Origin: a virus
Length of the DNA stretch: 64,000 nucleotides
Virus record (IMG/VR): IMGVR_UViG_3300034378_000186
Coordinates: 1-64,000 of that record
Strand: one strand, 5' to 3'
Under the pieces are notes generated by a model. That model was given only the letters and a program-made list of their open reading frames with translations. It did no database searches and was not told the origin of the DNA. Position numbers and translations under genes: made by a program. This document shows, in pieces, positions 1 through 59,296 of this stretch. The stretch's first letter is position 1; each line of letters opens with the position of its first letter.

Positions 1-788
1 AAGACATATAAATTTCGTCTTTACCCAACAAAAGAGCAAGAAGTGCTTTTAAATAAGCATTTTGGACATTCTCGTTGGGTGTATAATCATTTCTTAAATG
101 AACGCAAAGAACAATATCAGGCGGATAAAAAATCTGACAATTATTACAAACAAGCTGCCACACTGACAAAACTTAAAAAAGAAGAGGATACGAAATGGTT
201 AAAAGAAGTTAATTCTCAAACGTTGCAATTTGCTTTACGTTCTTTAGATACAGCTTTTCTAAACTTTTTTAGAGGTAATGCACAATTCCCAAAGTTTAAA
301 TCTCGGAAACATAAAAATACTTTTACTGTTCCCCAATTTGGAACTTTAGTTGACAATAAAATATCAATACCTAAATTCAAAGAAGGTATTAAAGTGAAAT
401 TGCATAGAGAGGTTAAGGGTAAAATTGGTAAAATGAGTATAATCAAAACACCTACTGGAAAATATTTTGTTTCAATTTTAACCGAAGAGCAATATCAGCT
501 TAAAGAAAAGACTGGTGCTGTTTGTGGTGTGGATTTAGGATTGAAAGACTTTGCCATTACTTCTGATGGGATTAAATTCAAAAATAACCGATATACTAAG
601 AAATATGAAAGAGATTTAGCGAAAGCACAAAAACATCTTTCTCGTAAACAAAAAGGTGGCAGTTCGTTTGAAAGACAAAAACGAAAAGTTACCAACATAC
701 ACGAGAAAATATCTAACACAAGACAAGATGTATTGCATAAGGTATCACATCAGCTTGTATCTGACTATGACATAATTGCCTTAGAAGA
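1..788 (+). pseudogene. tnpB: TnpB 5' part (start upstream of window), broken just after RuvC-II Glu
   Basis: KTYKFRLYP, WLKEVNSQTLQ, FPKFKS, GVDLGLKDFAITSDG, ends DIIALE then unrelated sequence. Confidence 0.92.
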
Positions 789-815
789 AAAAGAATTTTC
801 TATATATTTATAGGT

Positions 816-1865
816 ATGAATATAGTTGATAAAAATATAGGCGGTTTGGTTGGCGGATTACTCATTGACAGCAGAGTTGATAATTATTCAATGGATAACC
901 GAAATTATAATTGTACTTGTGAGTGTGGAAACAAGATTGTAAAGTCATTTAACGCTTTAAATTTAGCTATTCGTAGGAAGAGTTATTCTACTTGTGGCTG
1001 TAAGAAGAGTGGTAAAAATATGGTTGATAAATACATTAGCAAACATATTTCCAATGTTAAAATATTAGGAAGAGTTGAAAACTATTCAATTGAAAATCAA
1101 AAGTATGATTGTTTGTGTGATTGTGGTAATAGAACAACAAAAGATTATGCTGTACTCTTTCATTCATTAAAATACGGACATAAAGTAAGTTGTGGTTGTA
1201 TTGTAACTGGTACTTGGAATAAGGGCAACTTTAATGATACATATGCAAAATCTAAAATAGGTGAAAAACACAATGAGTTATCTATAATTGGGATAGAGAA
1301 AAATAACCCACACGGGTATAAAATGATTTGCGATTGCGAGTGTGGAAATATGACGAAACAAATATATGCCGACCTTAAAAGAGGTAAAGTTAAGAGTTGT
1401 GGTTGTTATGGCAAAGAACAACAAAGTAAGTCGGGTTCTAAGTATGGGTTAAATAATGGCACTATAAATTGCTCAAAAAGAAAATGGGGTGTTGAAAAAG
1501 ATGGTAAGTTTATTAGAATGCGTTCTGGTTTTGAAGTTATGTACGCTATGATTCTTGAAAAGGAAAACATAAAATGGGAGTATGAACCCAAAAGATTTAA
1601 ACTTTCAGATGGTTTGAGATATACACCAGACTTTTATTTACCACATCAAGACCTTTGGATTGATGTTAAAGGTCATATAACAGAAAAACATAAAAAGAAA
1701 CATAGGTTATTTAGAGAACTTGGACAGAATCTTAATTTAGTTATGATTGATGAGCTACAAGAAAGATTAGGTATGAGTTACTATATGTTTAAAAAACAAT
1801 GGGATATTAAAGCCGAGTCAGACAATGTGGAAACACCTCGTATGGTAGCTGCGAGTACAGAATAG
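816..1865 (+). CDS. PD-(D/E)XK endonuclease with three CxCxCG...CGC zinc-binding repeats, inserted in tnpB
   Basis: Repeats CTCECGN/CLCDCGN/CDCECGN; C-terminal RSGFE..WEYEP..YTPDFYLP..WIDVKG. Confidence 0.8.
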   Translation: MNIVDKNIGGLVGGLLIDSRVDNYSMDNRNYNCTCECGNKIVKSFNALNLAIRRKSYSTCGCKKSGKNMVDKYISKHISNVKILGRVENYSIENQKYDCLCDCGNRTTKDYAVLFHSLKYGHKVSCGCIVTGTWNKGNFNDTYAKSKIGEKHNELSIIGIEKNNPHGYKMICDCECGNMTKQIYADLKRGKVKSCGCYGKEQQSKSGSKYGLNNGTINCSKRKWGVEKDGKFIRMRSGFEVMYAMILEKENIKWEYEPKRFKLSDGLRYTPDFYLPHQDLWIDVKGHITEKHKKKHRLFRELGQNLNLVMIDELQERLGMSYYMFKKQWDIKAESDNVETPRMVAASTE

Positions 1866-1937
1866 GCGTTCTAATCATTTTAAATGATACTACACAAACA
1901 ACAATTAAAAACAGGCTTTAAAATCTCATTAAATAAA

Positions 1938-2231
1938 AATGTAAAAGGGATGATGAGCAATAGAAAACTATCAAAGCATATTGCAGATGCAAGTTGGGGT
2001 ACATTTGTGAGGTTTTTAGAGTACAAAGCAGATTGGAATGACAAAAGAGTGGTTAAAATAAACCGCTTTTACCCCAGTTCAAAAACGTGTAACGTCTGTG
2101 GGTGGATAAATCAAGACTTAAATCTTTCAGTTCGTGAATGGACTTGCAAAAATGGACATCACTTAGATAGGGATGAAAATGCTGCAAAAAACATTCTAAA
2201 TGAAGGATTAAAGATAATATCGGCTGGAACT
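1938..2231 (+). pseudogene. tnpB: TnpB 3' part (zinc ribbon, RuvC-III)
   Basis: NVKGMM..IADASW..LEYKA..PSSKTCNVCG..WTC..DRDENAAKNI..ISAGT. Confidence 0.92.
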
Positions 2232-2265
2232 TTACAAACTAAATAATATTCCGTATATTTGAACT

Positions 2266-2850
2266 ATGAATACGAATACACAGAAATATAAAGTTTGTTA
2301 TAAATGTAGAAAGAAATTACCGCTTACAAGTGAGTATTTTTCAAAGCAGAAAAAATCCTCTGATGGTTTTGATGGTAGATGCAAGTCTTGTGTAAACTTA
2401 ATATCTAAGAAGTATCGTAAAGAAAAAGGTGAACAATATAGGATTGATAACATTACTAAGGCTAAGGAGCAACAACAAAAAAGAATAGCAAAAAGACAAT
2501 GTAGGCACTGCTCAACTAATAGACTATCAAATAGCGATACACTATGTGAAAAACATTGGTTTCAATACGCTTCTAAACGTCATCTTGGGACAATGAAAAG
2601 AGGGGGTGAACTGAAAGCATTATTGGAAAGGCAGAATTATAAATGTGCTTATACAGGATTGATTTTAACACCTGCATTAGATGCAGGCGTTGACCATATT
2701 ATTGCTCTTTCAAATGATGCGGGGCAACATAATAAAATAGAAAATCTTCAATGGGTACACTCTGAAATAAACAGAATGAAGAATAACCATACAGAAGAAG
2801 ATTTTTTGAAATACATTAAACTAATCTATGAAAATAGATTGAGTGGGTAG
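2266..2850 (+). CDS. HNH endonuclease with N-terminal CxxC zinc motifs
   Basis: CYKC..CKSC; QNYKCAYTG..VDHIIA..NLQWVHSEINRMKNN. Confidence 0.85.
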   Translation: MNTNTQKYKVCYKCRKKLPLTSEYFSKQKKSSDGFDGRCKSCVNLISKKYRKEKGEQYRIDNITKAKEQQQKRIAKRQCRHCSTNRLSNSDTLCEKHWFQYASKRHLGTMKRGGELKALLERQNYKCAYTGLILTPALDAGVDHIIALSNDAGQHNKIENLQWVHSEINRMKNNHTEEDFLKYIKLIYENRLSG

Positions 2851-2975
2851 GGACTATCCACTATACACGGGTGGAGCTATAAATAAGACTTCTTTCGAGA
2901 AGCATAAAGCTGTGAAACCCGAAGCCCGTTTGTCTTTAGTAAATGGGTAGTTCACCGAACTGAGATGAATTTAAT
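2842..2975 (+). ncRNA. omegaRNA (TnpB guide RNA) scaffold plus ~20-nt flank-derived guide
   Basis: 5' hairpin AGTGGGTAG-GGA-CTATCCACT, CGGGT/ACCCG pairing, TTCT-TTCG-AGAA hairpin, RE hairpin, TCAC at 2952-2955. Confidence 0.75.
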
Positions 2976-3057
2976 TAGTAGCATAAATAATAATTAACCA
3001 GCCAACACCGCAATGGATGCTACATGTTGTTAGGTGCTGGCGCAATACTTTAATAAA

Positions 3058-3342
3058 ATGGACGAAATGTCAAAAGCTTGTACAAAAGAAAGCCGCCCTG
3101 AGTTTGCGGAATTGTTAGAAGCATTCAAAGAGCAATTAAACTACATGGATGAAAACTCAAGTATTATTAACGAAAAGGTGAACACGATTAAAGATTTACA
3201 TTTTCCTGAAAAAGAACCAAGCCTGGAAGAAATTCAATCGAGTGGCGTATTAGGTGAACTGTGGGGATGCGTGGCAAAAATGCGCGAGTACAACAACACG
3301 CTTAATGAAAGCAAAAAAAGTTTGGTTAGGTTCATTGGTTAA
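3058..3342 (+). CDS. hypothetical helical protein flanked by inverted repeats
   Basis: ORF; ATG at 3058 preferred over GTG 3034. Confidence 0.7.
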   Translation: MDEMSKACTKESRPEFAELLEAFKEQLNYMDENSSIINEKVNTIKDLHFPEKEPSLEEIQSSGVLGELWGCVAKMREYNNTLNESKKSLVRFIG

Positions 3343-3460
3343 ATGGATAGCGTGCAGGCGTGGGTCGGCTGCGCTTGCACCTAATGAATGGTAATGATAA
3401 GAAACAGGAGAAGATCTTGTCAAAAATTATCACTTTAAAAAACACTAAAAGGAAATAATT

Positions 3461-8806: not shown

Positions 8807-9003
8807 TATTTTTGATTATATTTGGAGTAGTTTTATTGGTGGGATTAATTATAAGGGGTTTAAATAGGTTCAGAAAAGATAATCCTGGTTACTTCTGCCC
8901 ATTTTATAAAAATGATGGATGCTTACATGTTGATGGGTATTTATGTGATATAAATGATTGTTCAATTTTAAAAAAATACAGTGATGTTAAAAATTTATTA
9001 TGA
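8800..9003 (+). CDS. small membrane protein with Cys-rich tail
   Basis: N-terminal TM; CPF..C.HVDG..C...C. Confidence 0.6.
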   Translation: MVIFLIIFGVVLLVGLIIRGLNRFRKDNPGYFCPFYKNDGCLHVDGYLCDINDCSILKKYSDVKNLL

Positions 9004-9322
9004 ACGGAGCTATGTTAGAATATAAAGCAAAGTGGAACGGAGTTAATATTCTAAAGATCGGAAGGTTTGAACCCAGCTCGAAGCAATGTTCAAACTGTGG
9101 ATACCTCAATAAAAAATTAACACTAAAAGACCGTAAATGGACTTGTCCTGAATGCGGTTTTGTTCTTAATCGTGATGTTAATGCTTCCATAAATATTAAA
9201 AACTTTGCTTTAAACAACCATTTGTGTACGGAACATACACTTAAAAATCATGGTACGTTGTCTTCGTTGGAAGGAGCTTTGACCCATGAAGCCCACCGAT
9301 CTTTAGTCGGTGGGTAGTTCAC
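9002..9322 (+). mobile_element. tnpB: internally deleted IS200/IS605 element: LE stub, tnpB 3' fragment, omegaRNA, RE
   Basis: TTAT|GAACGGAGC joined to MLEYKA..PSSKQC..NRDVNAS; ends GGGTAGTTCAC. Confidence 0.85.
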
Positions 9323-16037: not shown

Positions 16038-16370
16038 ATGGGAAAGATAACTAAACAAAAACAGAAGGAATTTCTTAGGACTAAGCTTGGTTCAAATCCA
16101 AAATGGGCTCTGAGGGGTTTAATGGTAATTTATAATTACCAGACTGAAGATGAGAAAGTATCTGAAACCATTCGTGAATATAATAATGTAGGTTTTACAG
16201 GGGTGGATAGAAATATTCTCACCAGTTTTGCAAACCAATATATGCGCAGGAGATTTCTGTCTGAGAAACAAATGGAACTTCTGTTTAAAAAAATGCCAAA
16301 ATACTGGAAGCAACTTTTGGCTGTATCAGATGAAAATATTCTTAATTCTCAAATCTTAAATACACAGTGA
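16038..16370 (+). CDS. hypothetical phage protein
   Basis: IYNYQTEDE..NNVGF..LSEKQ..KYWKQL. Confidence 0.75.
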   Translation: MGKITKQKQKEFLRTKLGSNPKWALRGLMVIYNYQTEDEKVSETIREYNNVGFTGVDRNILTSFANQYMRRRFLSEKQMELLFKKMPKYWKQLLAVSDENILNSQILNTQ

Positions 16371-16415
16371 ACTACCCACCCACATTCTGATGGGTGGGTT
16401 TTTACGCTCTATTTT
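16367..16415 (-). mobile_element. 49-bp minimal IS200/IS605 derivative (PATE-like)
   Basis: minus strand TTTAT|AAAATAGAGCGTAAAAACCCACCCATCAGAATGTGGGTGGGTAGTTCAC. Confidence 0.85.
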
Positions 16416-16562
16416 ATAAAACTACTACTCTGAGGGAAGGAAGATTCGTTGGAATGCTTTACAAACCCCATGTTTTTAATTAATATCCATTTTATGTGTT
16501 TTAGGCTTGGTCAATTTGATCGGGGTTTTTTTTTATATGTGGATAATTTTTATTACTTTTAT

Positions 16563-16775
16563 AAATTGAGTGTAAAACCAAATTATTTTTAGTGGTTTGG
16601 ATGTAAGCGACAAAAGTAGTATATTTGTATTGTCAGTATAAGACATTAAAACCTCGTAAGGGACTTGCGAGTATACGTATGGAGCGACAGTAAGACTTCT
16701 AACTCTTTGGAGCAGTAAGCAAGTTGCTGTGAAGTACGAAGCACATTCATCACGAAGTGTGGATGTGTAGTTCAC
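16563..16775 (+). mobile_element. 213-bp protein-free IS200/IS605 derivative: LE, promoter, omegaRNA, RE
   Basis: TTTAT|AAATTGAGTGTAAAACC..GGATGTAAGCGAC; TATATTTG 16620; ends TAGTTCAC. Confidence 0.85.
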
Positions 16776-34487: not shown

Positions 34488-36395
34488 ATGCTTAAAGGAT
34501 TAAAATATCGCATTTACCCAACCAACTCACAAAAAGAGTTAATAGCCAAACATATTGGTAGTAGTCGTTTTGTGTATAACCTTGCATTAGAAACAAAAAA
34601 TACAGCATATTTAGGTTCTAAACATAACTTTTCTCCTTTTGATTTAATTAAGCAACTATCTGAACTTAAAAAAGAATATCCTTGGCTTAAAGAGGTTAAT
34701 AGCCAATCTTTACAGCAAGCTATCCAAAATATGGATATTGCTTTTAAGAAATTCTTTAAAGGGGCTGGTTTTCCTAAATTCAAGTCAAAGCATAGAGGAA
34801 AACAATCTTTTTCTATTCCACAAAATGTAATAGTAGAAAATGAAAAGTTAATTATTCCTAAATTCAAGGAAGGAATCGAAATTGTTTTGCACAGACCTAT
34901 TGAAGGAACAATCAAAAGTGCAACTATTAGTATTACTTCAACAGGGAAATACTTTGTTTCAATATTAGTTGAAACCAGTAAAGAGAAACCAAGTAAAGCA
35001 CCTATTAAAGAAAAAACAACTATTGGTATTAAGTTAGGCGTATTCCCAAATATGTTTTCTACAAATAATTTTTCCGTTAGCCCATTGGCTAATAGACGAT
35101 GCGGAACTTCCAGTTCCTCTACTGGCAGCAGTGCAACTCTCCCAAACAGCAATGATTTCTCCTGTTTCCTTGCTTCTTTGAATGACTTTCTTCTTGGAAG
35201 CCGCCCAAGCAGCTTGATGCAGTTTGGATATATGCTCGGCACTACGTTTTGCCCCCTTATTGGCTTTAGATATTTTTCTTCTTGTTTCAGCAGAGTGCGT
35301 TTTTCCAAAAAAGCCATTAAATTCTCCAACTCTGGTTTTAGCGCGGTTAGAAATAGCAGCACATTCGGATTGAGTTCTTTTTCTCCCCAAAGTGCTTCTA
35401 TGGGGTACGGTGCAAATATTATAGCCGAATTTCTTTTCGTTACTCCTAAAGAAGGAAATCCAAAAGCATTCTCTATCTTGAAGGCTTGCGTAATCCTCGA
35501 CAACTTCGATGATTTGGAAATCAAAAGCATCCCATCCGTACTTAGCAATAGCCTTGTAAAATGGAAAGTTGCTTTGCAAGTTCCTTTTTCTTCTGTGTTC
35601 AGCAAATCTAAGTTTGATATTGACGGATTGCCCAATGTAGCATTTACCGTTGATTGTGTTTCTGAAGATGTAAACTCCAGATACAGATGGGATGTCTTTG
35701 AACCTTGTTTGCATATTGCAAAGATACAAAAAGAAAACGATTTAAAACCTAATTGTTCAAAAAAAGACTTAGGAATAAAATCGTTTTTAGTTACTTCTGA
35801 TGGAGAAGAAATTGATAATCCCAAATACTTACGAAAAGCACAGAGTAGATTAAAATATGTACAACGTAAATATTCAAATAACAAAGGCAAGCGCACTAAG
35901 AAAAAACTTGCTAAGCTACACGAAAAAGTAGCTAACCAAAGAAAAGATTTTCTACATAAAACCTCAACTAAACTGATTCGTGAGAACCAAACGATAGCCA
36001 TTGAGGATTTAGCGGTTGCTAACATGGTCAAGAACCATAATCTTGCACAGGCAATTAGTGATGTTAGTTGGTCAACCTTTGTTTCAATGTTGGAATACAA
36101 AGCTGATTGGTATGGTAAAAATATCTTACAAATAGGACGTTTTGCACCATCATCAAAGACTTGTTCTTGCTGTGGGTATATCAATAAAGAACTAACACTA
36201 AAAGACCGTGAATGGACTTGTCCTAAGTGTAATTCTGTACTTGACCGTGATGTGAATGCTGCTGTTAACATTAAATCATTTGCATTAAAAAATATCTTAT
36301 CTGGAACGGATAGGAAAACTCGGAACGAACTGCCTCGGTTACGAGGAGTGTTGACTTCCGAAGCCCAACCCATCGGCTCTGCCGTGGGTGGGTAG
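34488..36395 (+). CDS. tnpB: TnpB with a 245-codon in-frame insertion directly before RuvC-I Asp (probably inactive)
   Basis: KTTIGI [735 nt] DLGIKSFLVTSDG; IAIEDL; DRDVNAA. Confidence 0.85.
   Translation: MLKGLKYRIYPTNSQKELIAKHIGSSRFVYNLALETKNTAYLGSKHNFSPFDLIKQLSELKKEYPWLKEVNSQSLQQAIQNMDIAFKKFFKGAGFPKFKSKHRGKQSFSIPQNVIVENEKLIIPKFKEGIEIVLHRPIEGTIKSATISITSTGKYFVSILVETSKEKPSKAPIKEKTTIGIKLGVFPNMFSTNNFSVSPLANRRCGTSSSSTGSSATLPNSNDFSCFLASLNDFLLGSRPSSLMQFGYMLGTTFCPLIGFRYFSSCFSRVRFSKKAIKFSNSGFSAVRNSSTFGLSSFSPQSASMGYGANIIAEFLFVTPKEGNPKAFSILKACVILDNFDDLEIKSIPSVLSNSLVKWKVALQVPFSSVFSKSKFDIDGLPNVAFTVDCVSEDVNSRYRWDVFEPCLHIAKIQKENDLKPNCSKKDLGIKSFLVTSDGEEIDNPKYLRKAQSRLKYVQRKYSNNKGKRTKKKLAKLHEKVANQRKDFLHKTSTKLIRENQTIAIEDLAVANMVKNHNLAQAISDVSWSTFVSMLEYKADWYGKNILQIGRFAPSSKTCSCCGYINKELTLKDREWTCPKCNSVLDRDVNAAVNIKSFALKNILSGTDRKTRNELPRLRGVLTSEAQPIGSAVGG
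35034..35714 (-). CDS. GIY-YIG homing-type endonuclease with NUMOD3/NUMOD1-like DNA-binding motifs
   Basis: SGVYIF.N.INGKCYIGQS.N...RF..H; GYN; FFGKTHSAETRRKIS. Confidence 0.92.
   Translation of the reverse strand: MQTRFKDIPSVSGVYIFRNTINGKCYIGQSVNIKLRFAEHRRKRNLQSNFPFYKAIAKYGWDAFDFQIIEVVEDYASLQDRECFWISFFRSNEKKFGYNICTVPHRSTLGRKRTQSECAAISNRAKTRVGEFNGFFGKTHSAETRRKISKANKGAKRSAEHISKLHQAAWAASKKKVIQRSKETGEIIAVWESCTAASRGTGSSASSISQWANGKIICRKHIWEYA
35719..35726 (-). promoter_or_regulatory. Bacteroidota -7 box for GIY-YIG gene
   Basis: TATCTTTG 4 nt before ATG. Confidence 0.7.
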
Positions 36396-36463
36396 TTCAC
36401 TGAACGTAGGGTTTCAGATGCAGTTTAGGATTAAAAAAAATAAATCTAATTCTTAATTAAAAG

Positions 36464-58052: not shown

Positions 58053-59296
58053 ATAAACTACCCATCGGCTAAAGACCGAATGGGTTTTAGACAATAACTA
58101 AGAATGCAAAGAGCAATACATAATCTGTCTTTCAGGCGTGTTTATAGCCGCCCCAAGCAAAGAGATAACCTTAGAAGCATTAAAATCTGCATCAATGGTA
58201 TCTACTTCACAATTTGTGTTGGTGCATTTAAACACCTTGTTGGTTCGTTTTCCAATATGTTTACAAGAGCTGCACGTCTGCGAAGTATAGGCAGGTGGTA
58301 CAACGATGCATTTCACACCATTAAGCAAAGCTTTGTATTCAATATACTGTCTAAGCATAGAGAAATTCCATTTACCAAGTTTAGTCCGAAACTTCTTGTT
58401 TCTTTTTTTACTTGTAAATCGGATTCCAGTAAGGTCTTCAATAGCGATTCCCTTGCCTTGCTCCTTAGCAGATTGAACAATAGATTTTGCGATAGTGTGA
58501 TTAACAATTTGGGCGTGCGTTTTCTCCCTTCCCGAAAGCCTTTTCAAAAGTCGTTTAGAACTTCTTGTGCATTTGGACTGGATAGAACTCCGAACCTTTT
58601 GACGTTTTTCCTTATACCTATTAAGGGAGTTGTTGGTGTGTTTCTCACCATCACTTGTTTCAACAATAGATGTGATGCCGAAATCCACTCCCGTAAATTC
58701 GGAAACATCTTTAATATCTACATCTGGAATATCAACACATTGAAACAAGAAAAATTTCCCTTTCCTGTAGATAAGGTCGGCCTCCCCTTTTATGTATGGA
58801 AGATACTTTTTGTTGAAACATTTAAAAGGTATTTTTTGTCTGCCACCAATACACCATATAGAAACAATGTCTTTTTTGTAGGTAAGAATCCTACTGTCAT
58901 AAGTAATTGCTCCAAAAGGCTTGAAAACACGTTTTTTCTTCCTATCAAGTTTATAAGCATCGTTCACTTTTGCGATGGCACGAACAATTACTTGTGCAGA
59001 AAGATTAGAGTTTTCCTTGATTTGATGGTAAACAAGTTTATGTATTTTGAACTGATTAAAAACTTTGTTTTCCCAAGCTATATTAGAAATAGCGTTGCAA
59101 CTTTTATTCACCGATTTAATGGTGTTAAGGAGCATCTGTTTATGTTCTTCCGTGGGTTCAAGTTTTATTTTAAGAGTCAAAACCATAAGGCAAATATACA
59201 AAATATTTCTATATTTGAAAATTATTATTTAACCAAAGGGAGAGCCACTTTCCTCCCATCGACACTTTGTGACCAATGGGTTTCCGTGGCAGTTTT
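58053..59296 (-). mobile_element. IS200/IS605 tnpB-only element
   Basis: minus strand TTCAT|AAAACTGCCACGGAAACCCAT hairpin; RE CCCATTCGGTCTTTAGCCGATGGGTAGTTTAT. Confidence 0.88.
58098..59186 (-). CDS. tnpB: intact TnpB RNA-guided endonuclease
   Basis: GVDFG, IAIEDL, YTSQTCSSC, DADFNAS; TATATTTG 4 nt before ATG. Confidence 0.92.
   Translation of the reverse strand: MVLTLKIKLEPTEEHKQMLLNTIKSVNKSCNAISNIAWENKVFNQFKIHKLVYHQIKENSNLSAQVIVRAIAKVNDAYKLDRKKKRVFKPFGAITYDSRILTYKKDIVSIWCIGGRQKIPFKCFNKKYLPYIKGEADLIYRKGKFFLFQCVDIPDVDIKDVSEFTGVDFGITSIVETSDGEKHTNNSLNRYKEKRQKVRSSIQSKCTRSSKRLLKRLSGREKTHAQIVNHTIAKSIVQSAKEQGKGIAIEDLTGIRFTSKKRNKKFRTKLGKWNFSMLRQYIEYKALLNGVKCIVVPPAYTSQTCSSCKHIGKRTNKVFKCTNTNCEVDTIDADFNASKVISLLGAAINTPERQIMYCSLHS

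Follow-up and report, generated by a model that had tools for sequence, protein, structure and literature searches.

A locus near the start of a phage contig raises the question of what a gene for a small HNH endonuclease is doing between the end of a tnpB gene and the omegaRNA, i.e. the guide RNA that belongs to it. The locus is part of IMG/VR record IMGVR_UViG_3300034378_000186; the window, the whole stretch that was analysed, comprises the first 64 kb of this 80.8-kb contig. Four tnpB-like genes are present on the complete contig, as are several omegaRNA-like right ends, which terminate in GTAGTTCAC. The HNH gene (2266-2850, plus strand) encodes 194 amino acids and stops with TAG at 2848-2850. 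An earlier sequence-only reading had placed the gene in the slot of TnpB, either as a candidate RNA-associated nuclease or as cargo with a promoter that maintains expression of the guide for use by a TnpB in trans. Comparison with related loci led us to a different answer: the HNH protein is probably the nuclease of a mobile cassette, of the free-standing homing-endonuclease type, that resides in TnpB/omegaRNA (IS200/IS605-type) elements of Bacteroidota phages. Linkage, a fixed site, a mosaic block, scaffold affinities, purifying selection and membership in a phage endonuclease VII/HNH family together argue for this view. The host is probably a member of the Bacteroidota, because a related tnpB is found in a Parabacteroides phage and a related locus in a metagenome-assembled genome (MAG) of the Flavobacteriales.

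Seventeen homologs of the HNH protein were found in a large protein collection, and DNA was obtained for eight distinct HNH loci, the window itself and L005, L006, L007, L012, L013, L014 and L148. Relatives in viral contigs were recovered with an HNH alignment as the query and by DNA searches. The alignment was needed, as the single HNH protein matched nothing in the viral contigs. A scan of these contigs with a DNA motif of the HNH 3' end returned just three loci that were already known, plus chance matches to AT-rich DNA. In addition, about 140 right ends of the family were collected from viral contigs. In all eight distinct loci, whose HNH proteins are close homologs (56-88% identity), the omegaRNA, complete with its 5' hairpin P1, followed directly downstream of the HNH gene with the same junction. 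HNH homologs of 45% identity or less were without an omegaRNA.

The end of the HNH gene and the start of the omegaRNA are the same DNA. P1 (2842-2862, plus strand) has 9 bp and consists of AGTGGGTAG (2842-2850), the loop GGA (2851-2853) and CTATCCACT (2854-2862), followed by ATACACGGGTGGAG. Its 5' arm is supplied by the terminal HNH codons AGT GGG TAG, while the 3' arm is non-coding. The full-length omegaRNA scaffold with the right end spans 2843-2955 (plus strand) and terminates in GTAGTTCAC (2947-2955); a frame-shifted remnant of the sequence coding for the TnpB tail lies within it. The predicted guide is the DNA flanking the right end (2956-2975, plus strand; CGAACTGAGATG...), directly after TTCAC as in all family members. 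Thus the window holds a structured omegaRNA at the 3' end, a right end and a predicted guide of the IS200/IS605 type.

A covariance model, R1, was trained on 22 omegaRNAs from HNH-less loci only. It matched 2843-2955 over model positions 1-110 of 110 with 104.7 bits (E 3e-21), and it matched every other HNH-linked omegaRNA at full length as well. Across seven HNH loci P1 was paired in 93.7% of the alignment cells, and pairing dropped to 24-46% when the register was slid. Six of the nine pairs had changed on both sides, a number that was reached by 0 of 500 shuffles. The consensus fold of 30 family omegaRNAs contained 28 pairs, 18 of them with compensatory changes. In view of the full-length match to R1 and the compensatory changes in P1, the stop region of the HNH gene really is part of a selected RNA helix, and the earlier observation that the HNH stop codon lies inside a complete omegaRNA 5' hairpin is confirmed. 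So is the kinship which that reading had seen to a stand-alone, protein-less omegaRNA of the same family at 16653-16775 (plus strand), since the two RNAs align over their whole length; the stand-alone copy has a complete HNH-free P1 and is preceded by a left-end-like sequence. Rfam holds no family for the omegaRNA, and searches of it, with the whole window at the gathering threshold and with positions 1-3400 at E values as high as 10, returned nothing relevant.

The position of the HNH gene relative to TnpB became apparent from alleles that lack it. In intact relatives, for example the copies of the window with ends at 9317 and 36395 and those of many viral loci, the tnpB open reading frame (ORF) continues through the scaffold to the TAG inside GTAGTTCAC. 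About 70 of the roughly 140 right ends have a TNB domain 74-165 nt upstream and an ORF that runs to this TAG, and we regard them as empty sites. The distance from the TNB domain to the omegaRNA is 721-736 nt in the HNH loci. In the empty alleles the last core residues of TnpB (...IISxGT) are encoded by the 5' arm and the loop of P1, and the codons after the loop form the 3' arm and a conserved TACACGGGTGGAG block. Whereas these HNH-less relatives possess the complete hairpin (ATATCGGCAGGAACTGTCGAT...), the window tnpB keeps the 5' arm and loop, ATATCGGCTGGAACT, and then diverges. This orphan half of P1 (2217-2231, plus strand) marks the left junction of the cassette; it was identified against the HNH-less alleles L045, L068 and L097 and by the boundary of identity between L148 and L012. 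The 3' part of the window tnpB (1928-2246, plus strand), which encodes a Cas12f1-like TNB domain (PF07282, E 4e-24), accordingly reads ...GLKIISAGT and then LQTK-stop (stop at 2244-2246), the latter being new sequence contributed by the cassette. The HNH ORF begins 19 nt further on. Thus the claim that the end of tnpB retains only half a hairpin holds.

The HNH gene therefore lies outside the TnpB slot, as the core of the window TnpB runs to the P1 loop and the ORF of intact relatives continues through the scaffold. Judged from these alignments, the insertion occurred behind the P1 loop and separates the TnpB core from the RNA; it would split off only a dispensable tail while the core frame is kept up to ...SAGT. 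The proposal that the HNH gene took the slot of TnpB is contradicted by the arrangement of the other loci, too: in L012 and L013 the HNH gene is immediately preceded by an intact TnpB core, and the 3' part of the core is still present in the window, L014 and L148. Why this place should be permissive is suggested by work on ISDra2. There the functional omegaRNA overlaps with a C-terminal domain of TnpB that is disordered and not needed for cleavage, and the functional parts of protein and RNA barely overlap (PMC10097598). If ISDra2 is a guide to the present family, the cassette may occupy the sole permissive seam of the element, because the tail can be spared.

The insertion point is the same in all recipients, right after the P1 loop (GGAAC or GGGAC). 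The window, L012, L013, L014, L148 and L006 share a tnpB-type orphan arm, ATATCG[G/T]C[A/T]GG[G/A]AC. L012 has an intact TnpB core of 368 aa followed by the HNH gene and the omegaRNA, and L013 shows the same order, as does L014, which is cut by the contig end. In L006 only the first tnpB codons are left; they are joined to the orphan arm ATCGTCAGGAA, after which the HNH gene and omegaRNA follow. L007 contains a deletion fusion of tnpB and HNH and then the omegaRNA. L148 has the order tnpA, GIY-YIG ORF, last ~50 tnpB codons, HNH and omegaRNA. In L005 the recipient was of the protein-less kind: the 111 nt upstream of its HNH gene match the left-end/promoter region of the window's protein-less cassette (16553-16663) with 91% identity and end in the half hairpin of that cassette, orphan arm CCTCGTAAGGGA. 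The use of one insertion point in tnpB-type and in protein-less recipients indicates site specificity, and about 70 empty versus eight filled alleles amount to presence or absence at one fixed site.

Evidence that the cassette has moved comes from the mosaic structure of the loci. Between L148 and L012 a block of ~670 nt, which starts at the P1 loop of the orphan arm, includes the HNH gene and ends at GGTGGAG, is ~99.5% identical with 3-4 differences (HNH 99.5%, P1 100%). Outside this block the identity is about 70-78% for the 3' end of tnpB and about 65% for the scaffold. Furthermore, the scaffolds of HNH loci are closest to scaffolds without HNH, with identities of 100% for L007 and L097, 97.5% for L014 and L045, 96.4% for L013 and L065 and 90.5% for the window and L068, while identity among themselves does not exceed 86%. 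The HNH genes of L013 and L014 are close (dN 0.065), yet the middles of their scaffolds differ. The block shared by L148 and L012 and the affinity to HNH-less scaffolds are what lateral transfer with short co-conversion tracts would leave behind. The HNH gene is under purifying selection, with ratios of nonsynonymous to synonymous substitution (dN/dS) of 0.06-0.16 at dS of at least 0.7.

Is the HNH protein an RNA-guided or RNA-tethered nuclease that functionally replaced TnpB? The strict linkage to a full-length omegaRNA in eight of eight loci, including L005, L006 and L007 which have no tnpB, speaks for it, and so does the selection on a P1 that overlaps the HNH 3' end. The protein itself offers little room for such a role. 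A CxxC...CxxC zinc ribbon at the N-terminus is followed by a long helix and, at the C-terminus, by an HNH motif (D143-H144...N160...N169...H175), of which D143, H144, N160, N169 and H175 are invariant in an alignment of 16 homologs. A match to phrog_1035 (endonuclease VII/HNH, E 1e-24) and to several other HNH PHROGs together with the invariant catalytic histidine and the Asn/His metal ligands establishes its HNH character; the Pfam match to PF01844 (E 0.0029, 18.1 bits) stayed below the cut-off of 21.4. NCBIfam gave no match and PADLOC a weak match to the PtuB HNH motif alone. Neither a RuvC nor an RNA-binding domain was found in the 194 aa with Pfam, PHROG, NCBIfam or PADLOC. Hence the build of IscB and Cas9, with the HNH inside a RuvC domain plus a bridge helix and PLMP or REC parts, is absent from this protein. 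The AlphaFold model, with a mean predicted local distance difference test (pLDDT) score of 81, displayed the zinc ribbon, the long helix and a generic HNH fold. Foldseek against the PDB yielded weak matches, the best being the small phage-type Gme HNH nickase 4h9d (E 0.2), others the HNH of phage GVE2, McrA and the HNH domain of Cas9; a search of PDB sequences with the HNH profile gave no meaningful match. Homologs of 341-2000 aa, i.e. longer fused HNH forms, were not found, which is weak evidence against an RNA-guided role.

One further feature could connect the protein to the RNA. In the homologs P0009 and P0012 the HNH frame runs from ...IYENRF into WxGTxQYTxGD...EAxxSxAxG, the TnpB tail encoded by the scaffold, and the same in-frame fusion is present in L013 and L014. 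However, the fusion is not a consistent property, as other homologs are stopped by TAG instead. In P0014 the N-terminus of TnpB is fused to the C-terminal two thirds of the HNH protein. Further points against such a role are the intact TnpB core that precedes the HNH gene in L012 and L013 and the pairing of near-identical HNH genes with scaffolds of only ~65-75% identity, the latter of which argues against specific recognition of the scaffold by the protein. We therefore rate replacement of TnpB by an RNA-associated HNH nuclease as very unlikely. Equally improbable is the broader possibility that the protein works with the omegaRNA in some way, be it tethered to or guided by the RNA or as a partner recruited to TnpB-omegaRNA via P1 or the in-frame tail. 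If it did so, the units of L005, L006 and L007 would be a minimal protein-plus-guide system and not leftovers. The related expectation that homologs lie upstream of an omegaRNA without a tnpB was borne out in its first part, in all eight loci, and does not hold throughout in its second, given the intact cores of L012 and L013.

A more serious competitor, though still a minority view, is that the HNH gene is accessory cargo of the TnpB element and not the agent of its own spread. It could provide a second nuclease for competition between phages or for processing breaks made by TnpB, while its promoter would sustain transcription of the omegaRNA for a TnpB encoded in cis or in trans, and the mosaic would stem from ordinary recombination among family members. 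The tnpB, HNH and omegaRNA parts of the window and L012, and likewise of L013 and L014, have co-diverged over long times, as expected of cargo, and the strong purifying selection on HNH fits cargo, too. Recombination of scaffold modules among HNH-less elements points in the same direction. A sigma-70-like site, TTTACA-17-TATATT (2231-2259, plus strand), is located at the start of the cassette just upstream of the HNH ATG, where it overlaps TATATTTG, and it is kept in L013 and in L014 (as TTGACA); L012, L148 and L006 have another upstream sequence. There is no terminator-like site between this site and the guide, which makes co-transcription of HNH and omegaRNA plausible.

The promoter itself found no statistical support. 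Sigma-70-like matches were not enriched in the region and could not be distinguished from chance. The Bacteroidota-type -7 motif TATATTTG (2254-2261) occurred 97 times in the window versus 98 expected, and was rejected as promoter evidence because at this chance frequency it is uninformative. Of the unit of promoter, HNH and omegaRNA postulated earlier, the overlap geometry of HNH and omegaRNA thus stands, with eight of eight loci and a covarying P1, whereas the promoter is a candidate. Expression may even hold a conflict. TnpB produces the omegaRNA by 5' processing of its own mRNA (PMC10278001); if the same applied here, the cut at P1 would sever the HNH message at its stop codon, a speculation at present.

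Three observations weigh against cargo. The identity block of L148 and L012 is bounded exactly by the loop and GGTGGAG, which is the footprint of a discrete inserted unit. The cassette is present in the protein-less L005 and persists after deletion of tnpB in L006 and L007, which makes it independent of any TnpB in cis. Moreover, the nearest HNH families are phage homing-type HNH/endonuclease VII proteins. An effect of the cassette on guide expression for a TnpB in trans, as the sequence-only reading had suggested, would be compatible with homing as a side effect.

In phages, group I introns often harbor homing nuclease genes, and we considered that the HNH ORF might be part of a self-splicing intron, or something similar, which is removed from the tnpB/omegaRNA transcript. 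A tie between introns and tnpB does exist in IStrons (PMC10690162). Against this, Rfam gave no intron match in the searches described above, the ORF has just 34 nt of non-coding sequence upstream and none downstream before P1, and the downstream hairpin is omegaRNA by its covariance-model match. Consequently a group I intron-encoded homing endonuclease was rejected, and we see hardly any chance that an intron of another kind is involved.

The favored mechanism of a homing-type cassette can be outlined as follows. The cassette would comprise about 650-670 bp (about 2226-2876 in the window) with the promoter-like stretch, the HNH ORF and a replacement P1. The HNH protein is envisaged to cut HNH-less P1 sites in related elements, either during co-infection or between copies in one genome, and repair would copy the cassette in via short conserved blocks, the loop on the left and TACA[C/A]nGGTGGAG on the right. 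In the process the 5' arm of the recipient's own P1 would be left upstream as an orphan and its 3' arm lost, while the last HNH codons would serve as the replacement 5' arm, so that the omegaRNA stays full length. The host element should survive the invasion because the frame of the TnpB core is kept, only the tail is lost and the omegaRNA remains complete. Most likely the cassette is a parasite of a parasite that has spread among elements in this way and leaves the guide RNA unbroken.

Several points weigh against this mechanism. The omegaRNA family recombines considerably without HNH; L065 and L112, for instance, share the middle of the scaffold and differ in the terminal hairpin. Hence ordinary recombination could be behind part of the mosaic, and that the HNH protein itself makes the break and drives the transfers is something we infer. 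No orthologous pair of a filled and an empty allele at the same genomic site was found among the elements, all of which differ in guides and flanks. An HNH-free P1 of the same subfamily, at 16653 in the window itself, is uninvaded. The 5' junction of L005 is without about 26 nt of the window-type junction, so at least one junction did not arise by simple homologous repair. Finally, the sample of HNH loci at the DNA level numbers only eight.

How does the cassette compare with known systems? Intronless homing is carried out by the T4 nucleases SegF, SegB and Mob, of HNH and GIY-YIG types (review PMC13565253). The present cassette resembles these free-standing homing genes in that a small protein-only nuclease gene occupies a fixed conserved place in phage genomes, is present or absent among homologous alleles, shows a near-identity block with short flanking co-conversion (L148/L012) and is under purifying selection. 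It differs in that the host is a selfish RNA-guided homing element, tnpB/omegaRNA, and not a phage housekeeping gene, that the insertion is in the loop of a guide-RNA hairpin, and that the last codons of the HNH cassette are a replacement arm which rebuilds an RNA helix; cleavage of the empty site is a prediction in our case. With the TnpB-omegaRNA elements of the IS200/IS605 family (ISDra2, the tnpB-only elements of the IS1341 type and OMEGA systems) the host element shares a TnpB with HTH, OrfB_IS605 and TNB domains and an omegaRNA that overlaps the gene 3' end, finishes at the right end and is followed by the guide. A tail that overlaps functional RNA and is dispensable is shared with ISDra2 (PMC10097598). 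Unlike those elements, it has a ~650-bp HNH cassette between the TnpB core of the window and the omegaRNA, the window is without tnpA, and the window tnpB is broken by yet another nuclease gene.

IscB and Cas9, in which the HNH is inserted in a RuvC domain and guided by an omegaRNA or crRNA, likewise combine an HNH and, in the same element, a guide RNA of IS200/IS605 type. Yet the HNH of the window is a separate protein of 194 aa without RNA-binding parts and with no fusion found, and the likeness goes no further than co-location. IStrons, chimeras of a group I intron and IS605/IS607, offer a parallel (PMC10690162): in both cases two selfish systems overlap at the end of the omegaRNA and each must preserve the structure of the other. 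The window element lacks an intron, however; its second parasite consists of a protein-only nuclease gene, and the two systems overlap in the 5' hairpin of the omegaRNA instead of the 3' splice site. In the literature we found no description of a homing nuclease nested between tnpB and omegaRNA.

Further nuclease genes in tnpB are found in the same genome. The 5' part of the window tnpB (1-796, plus strand; HTH_OrfB_IS605, PF12323, and OrfB_IS605, PF01385) is cut by the contig start, with the gene beginning at base 1 or shortly before it, so that the left end of the element is missing. It stops right after the RuvC-II ...IALE codons, where insertion 1 (approximately 797-1927, plus strand) interrupts the gene with ~1.1 kb of DNA. 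The insertion carries the ORF 816-1865, which encodes three Cys-rich repeats and a nuclease domain like PD-(D/E)XK and phage endonuclease I, with matches to Pfam PF05367 (E 1.6e-6) and PF06356, to nuclease families of PHROG and to HEAT_CxxC_PDDEXK of PADLOC. In L012 and L013, with whose uninterrupted TnpB the window tnpB is collinear, insertion 1 is missing and the two tnpB parts abut; excision of about 797-1927 would restore the in-frame reading ...ALEDKNVKGMM. A relative of the insertion-1 protein was not found in the viral contigs, nor was there an intron signature. Across its two pieces the gene still encodes the TnpB domain set of HTH_OrfB_IS605, the OrfB_IS605 RuvC and TNB. With insertion 1 at the RuvC-II glutamate and the tail out of frame the window copy is decaying as a TnpB element, while HNH and omegaRNA are intact. 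An intact TnpB of this family was not seen in the contig, and no tnpA was found in the window; one adjoins the related element of L148.

The nuclease genes in the tnpB genes of the window phage sit at the RuvC-I aspartate, the RuvC-II glutamate and the P1 seam. This is the most conserved DNA of tnpB, as expected for homing nucleases. The presence of other homing-type nuclease genes in conserved tnpB motifs of the same genome and of L148 supports our interpretation of the HNH cassette.

The remaining tnpB copies are varied. The copy at 34488-36400 holds a homing endonuclease gene on the minus strand (35034-35729, phrog_314) at its GIDLG motif; in 34488-36395 the plus frame is still open (635 aa), and so is an antisense frame of 628 aa. 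At 9000-9322 a truncated tnpB consists of the last 105 codons only, a C-terminal fragment to 9317, with a full omegaRNA-like right end, the guide-like flank GATATCAATGG and an unrelated small ORF directly before it. A weak full-length match of the covariance model (58053-58161, minus strand; 23.6 bits, E 0.003) just downstream of an unrelated tnpB (58098-59201, minus strand) is presumably the distant omegaRNA of that gene.

Comparable arrangements were seen at related loci. In L148 (1-2254, from the Flavobacteriales MAG contig) tnpA is on the minus strand and the GIY-YIG ORF (551-1264) takes the place of most of tnpB. Its guide flank is TNB-domain coding sequence of another tnpB, which means that the L148 element sits inside that gene. 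In L005 (1-405) a Cys-rich ORF of another kind (...CSVDGCNKKHSGNGYCRNHYY...) precedes a tnpB remnant of only the last ~18 core codons plus the tail, and a full omegaRNA comes next. Here too, a nuclease-like gene seems to have replaced most of a tnpB while the guide RNA was kept.

Protein-less cassettes with a left-end-like sequence, a short spacer and a full omegaRNA with right end are found in L083 (3830-4062) and in the window (16553-16775). The P1 of the former (CTGGGCAG-GGA-CTGTCCAG) resembles the HNH-linked P1 of L013, and the L083 cassette may thus descend from an HNH-bearing element. A terminator-like hairpin after ORF 16038-16370 (16367-16400, minus strand) is the terminal omegaRNA hairpin with GTAGTTCAC on the minus strand, a right-end remnant that faces the stand-alone omegaRNA at 16653.

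The predicted guide of the HNH locus had no second match within the window. Its 20-mer matched the viral contigs once, in a CRISPR array of L147 (1640-2300; IMGVR_UViG_2718218041_000009), where a viral contig carries the 28-nt repeat TTTCTAAATCATCTGGGCGATGACGAAC. There 5 nt of repeat and about 16 nt of spacer coincide with 2956-2975 and the match ends after 16 spacer bases; it is probably due to chance.

Cas12 descends from TnpB/omegaRNA elements, and these are homing elements in their own right, guided by RNA. Our data suggest that they are in turn colonised by classical homing nucleases made of protein only. The insertion point would mark where the functional protein ends and the functional RNA starts, in agreement with the structural work on ISDra2, and the cassette pays for its stay in that its own coding sequence rebuilds the RNA helix. 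This is a clear natural case of C-terminal codons and a stop codon co-evolving with an RNA stem. The filled and empty alleles constitute a natural experiment on how much change the TnpB tail and the sequence of P1 tolerate, and the HNH protein is a candidate nuclease with a long, definable target. The family also lends itself to the study of how two kinds of homing elements conflict and cooperate in phages. For recurring loci in which an HNH gene seems to have replaced TnpB with the omegaRNA retained there would be an ordinary explanation, i.e. nesting followed by decay or deletion of tnpB, which requires no new RNA-guided effector.

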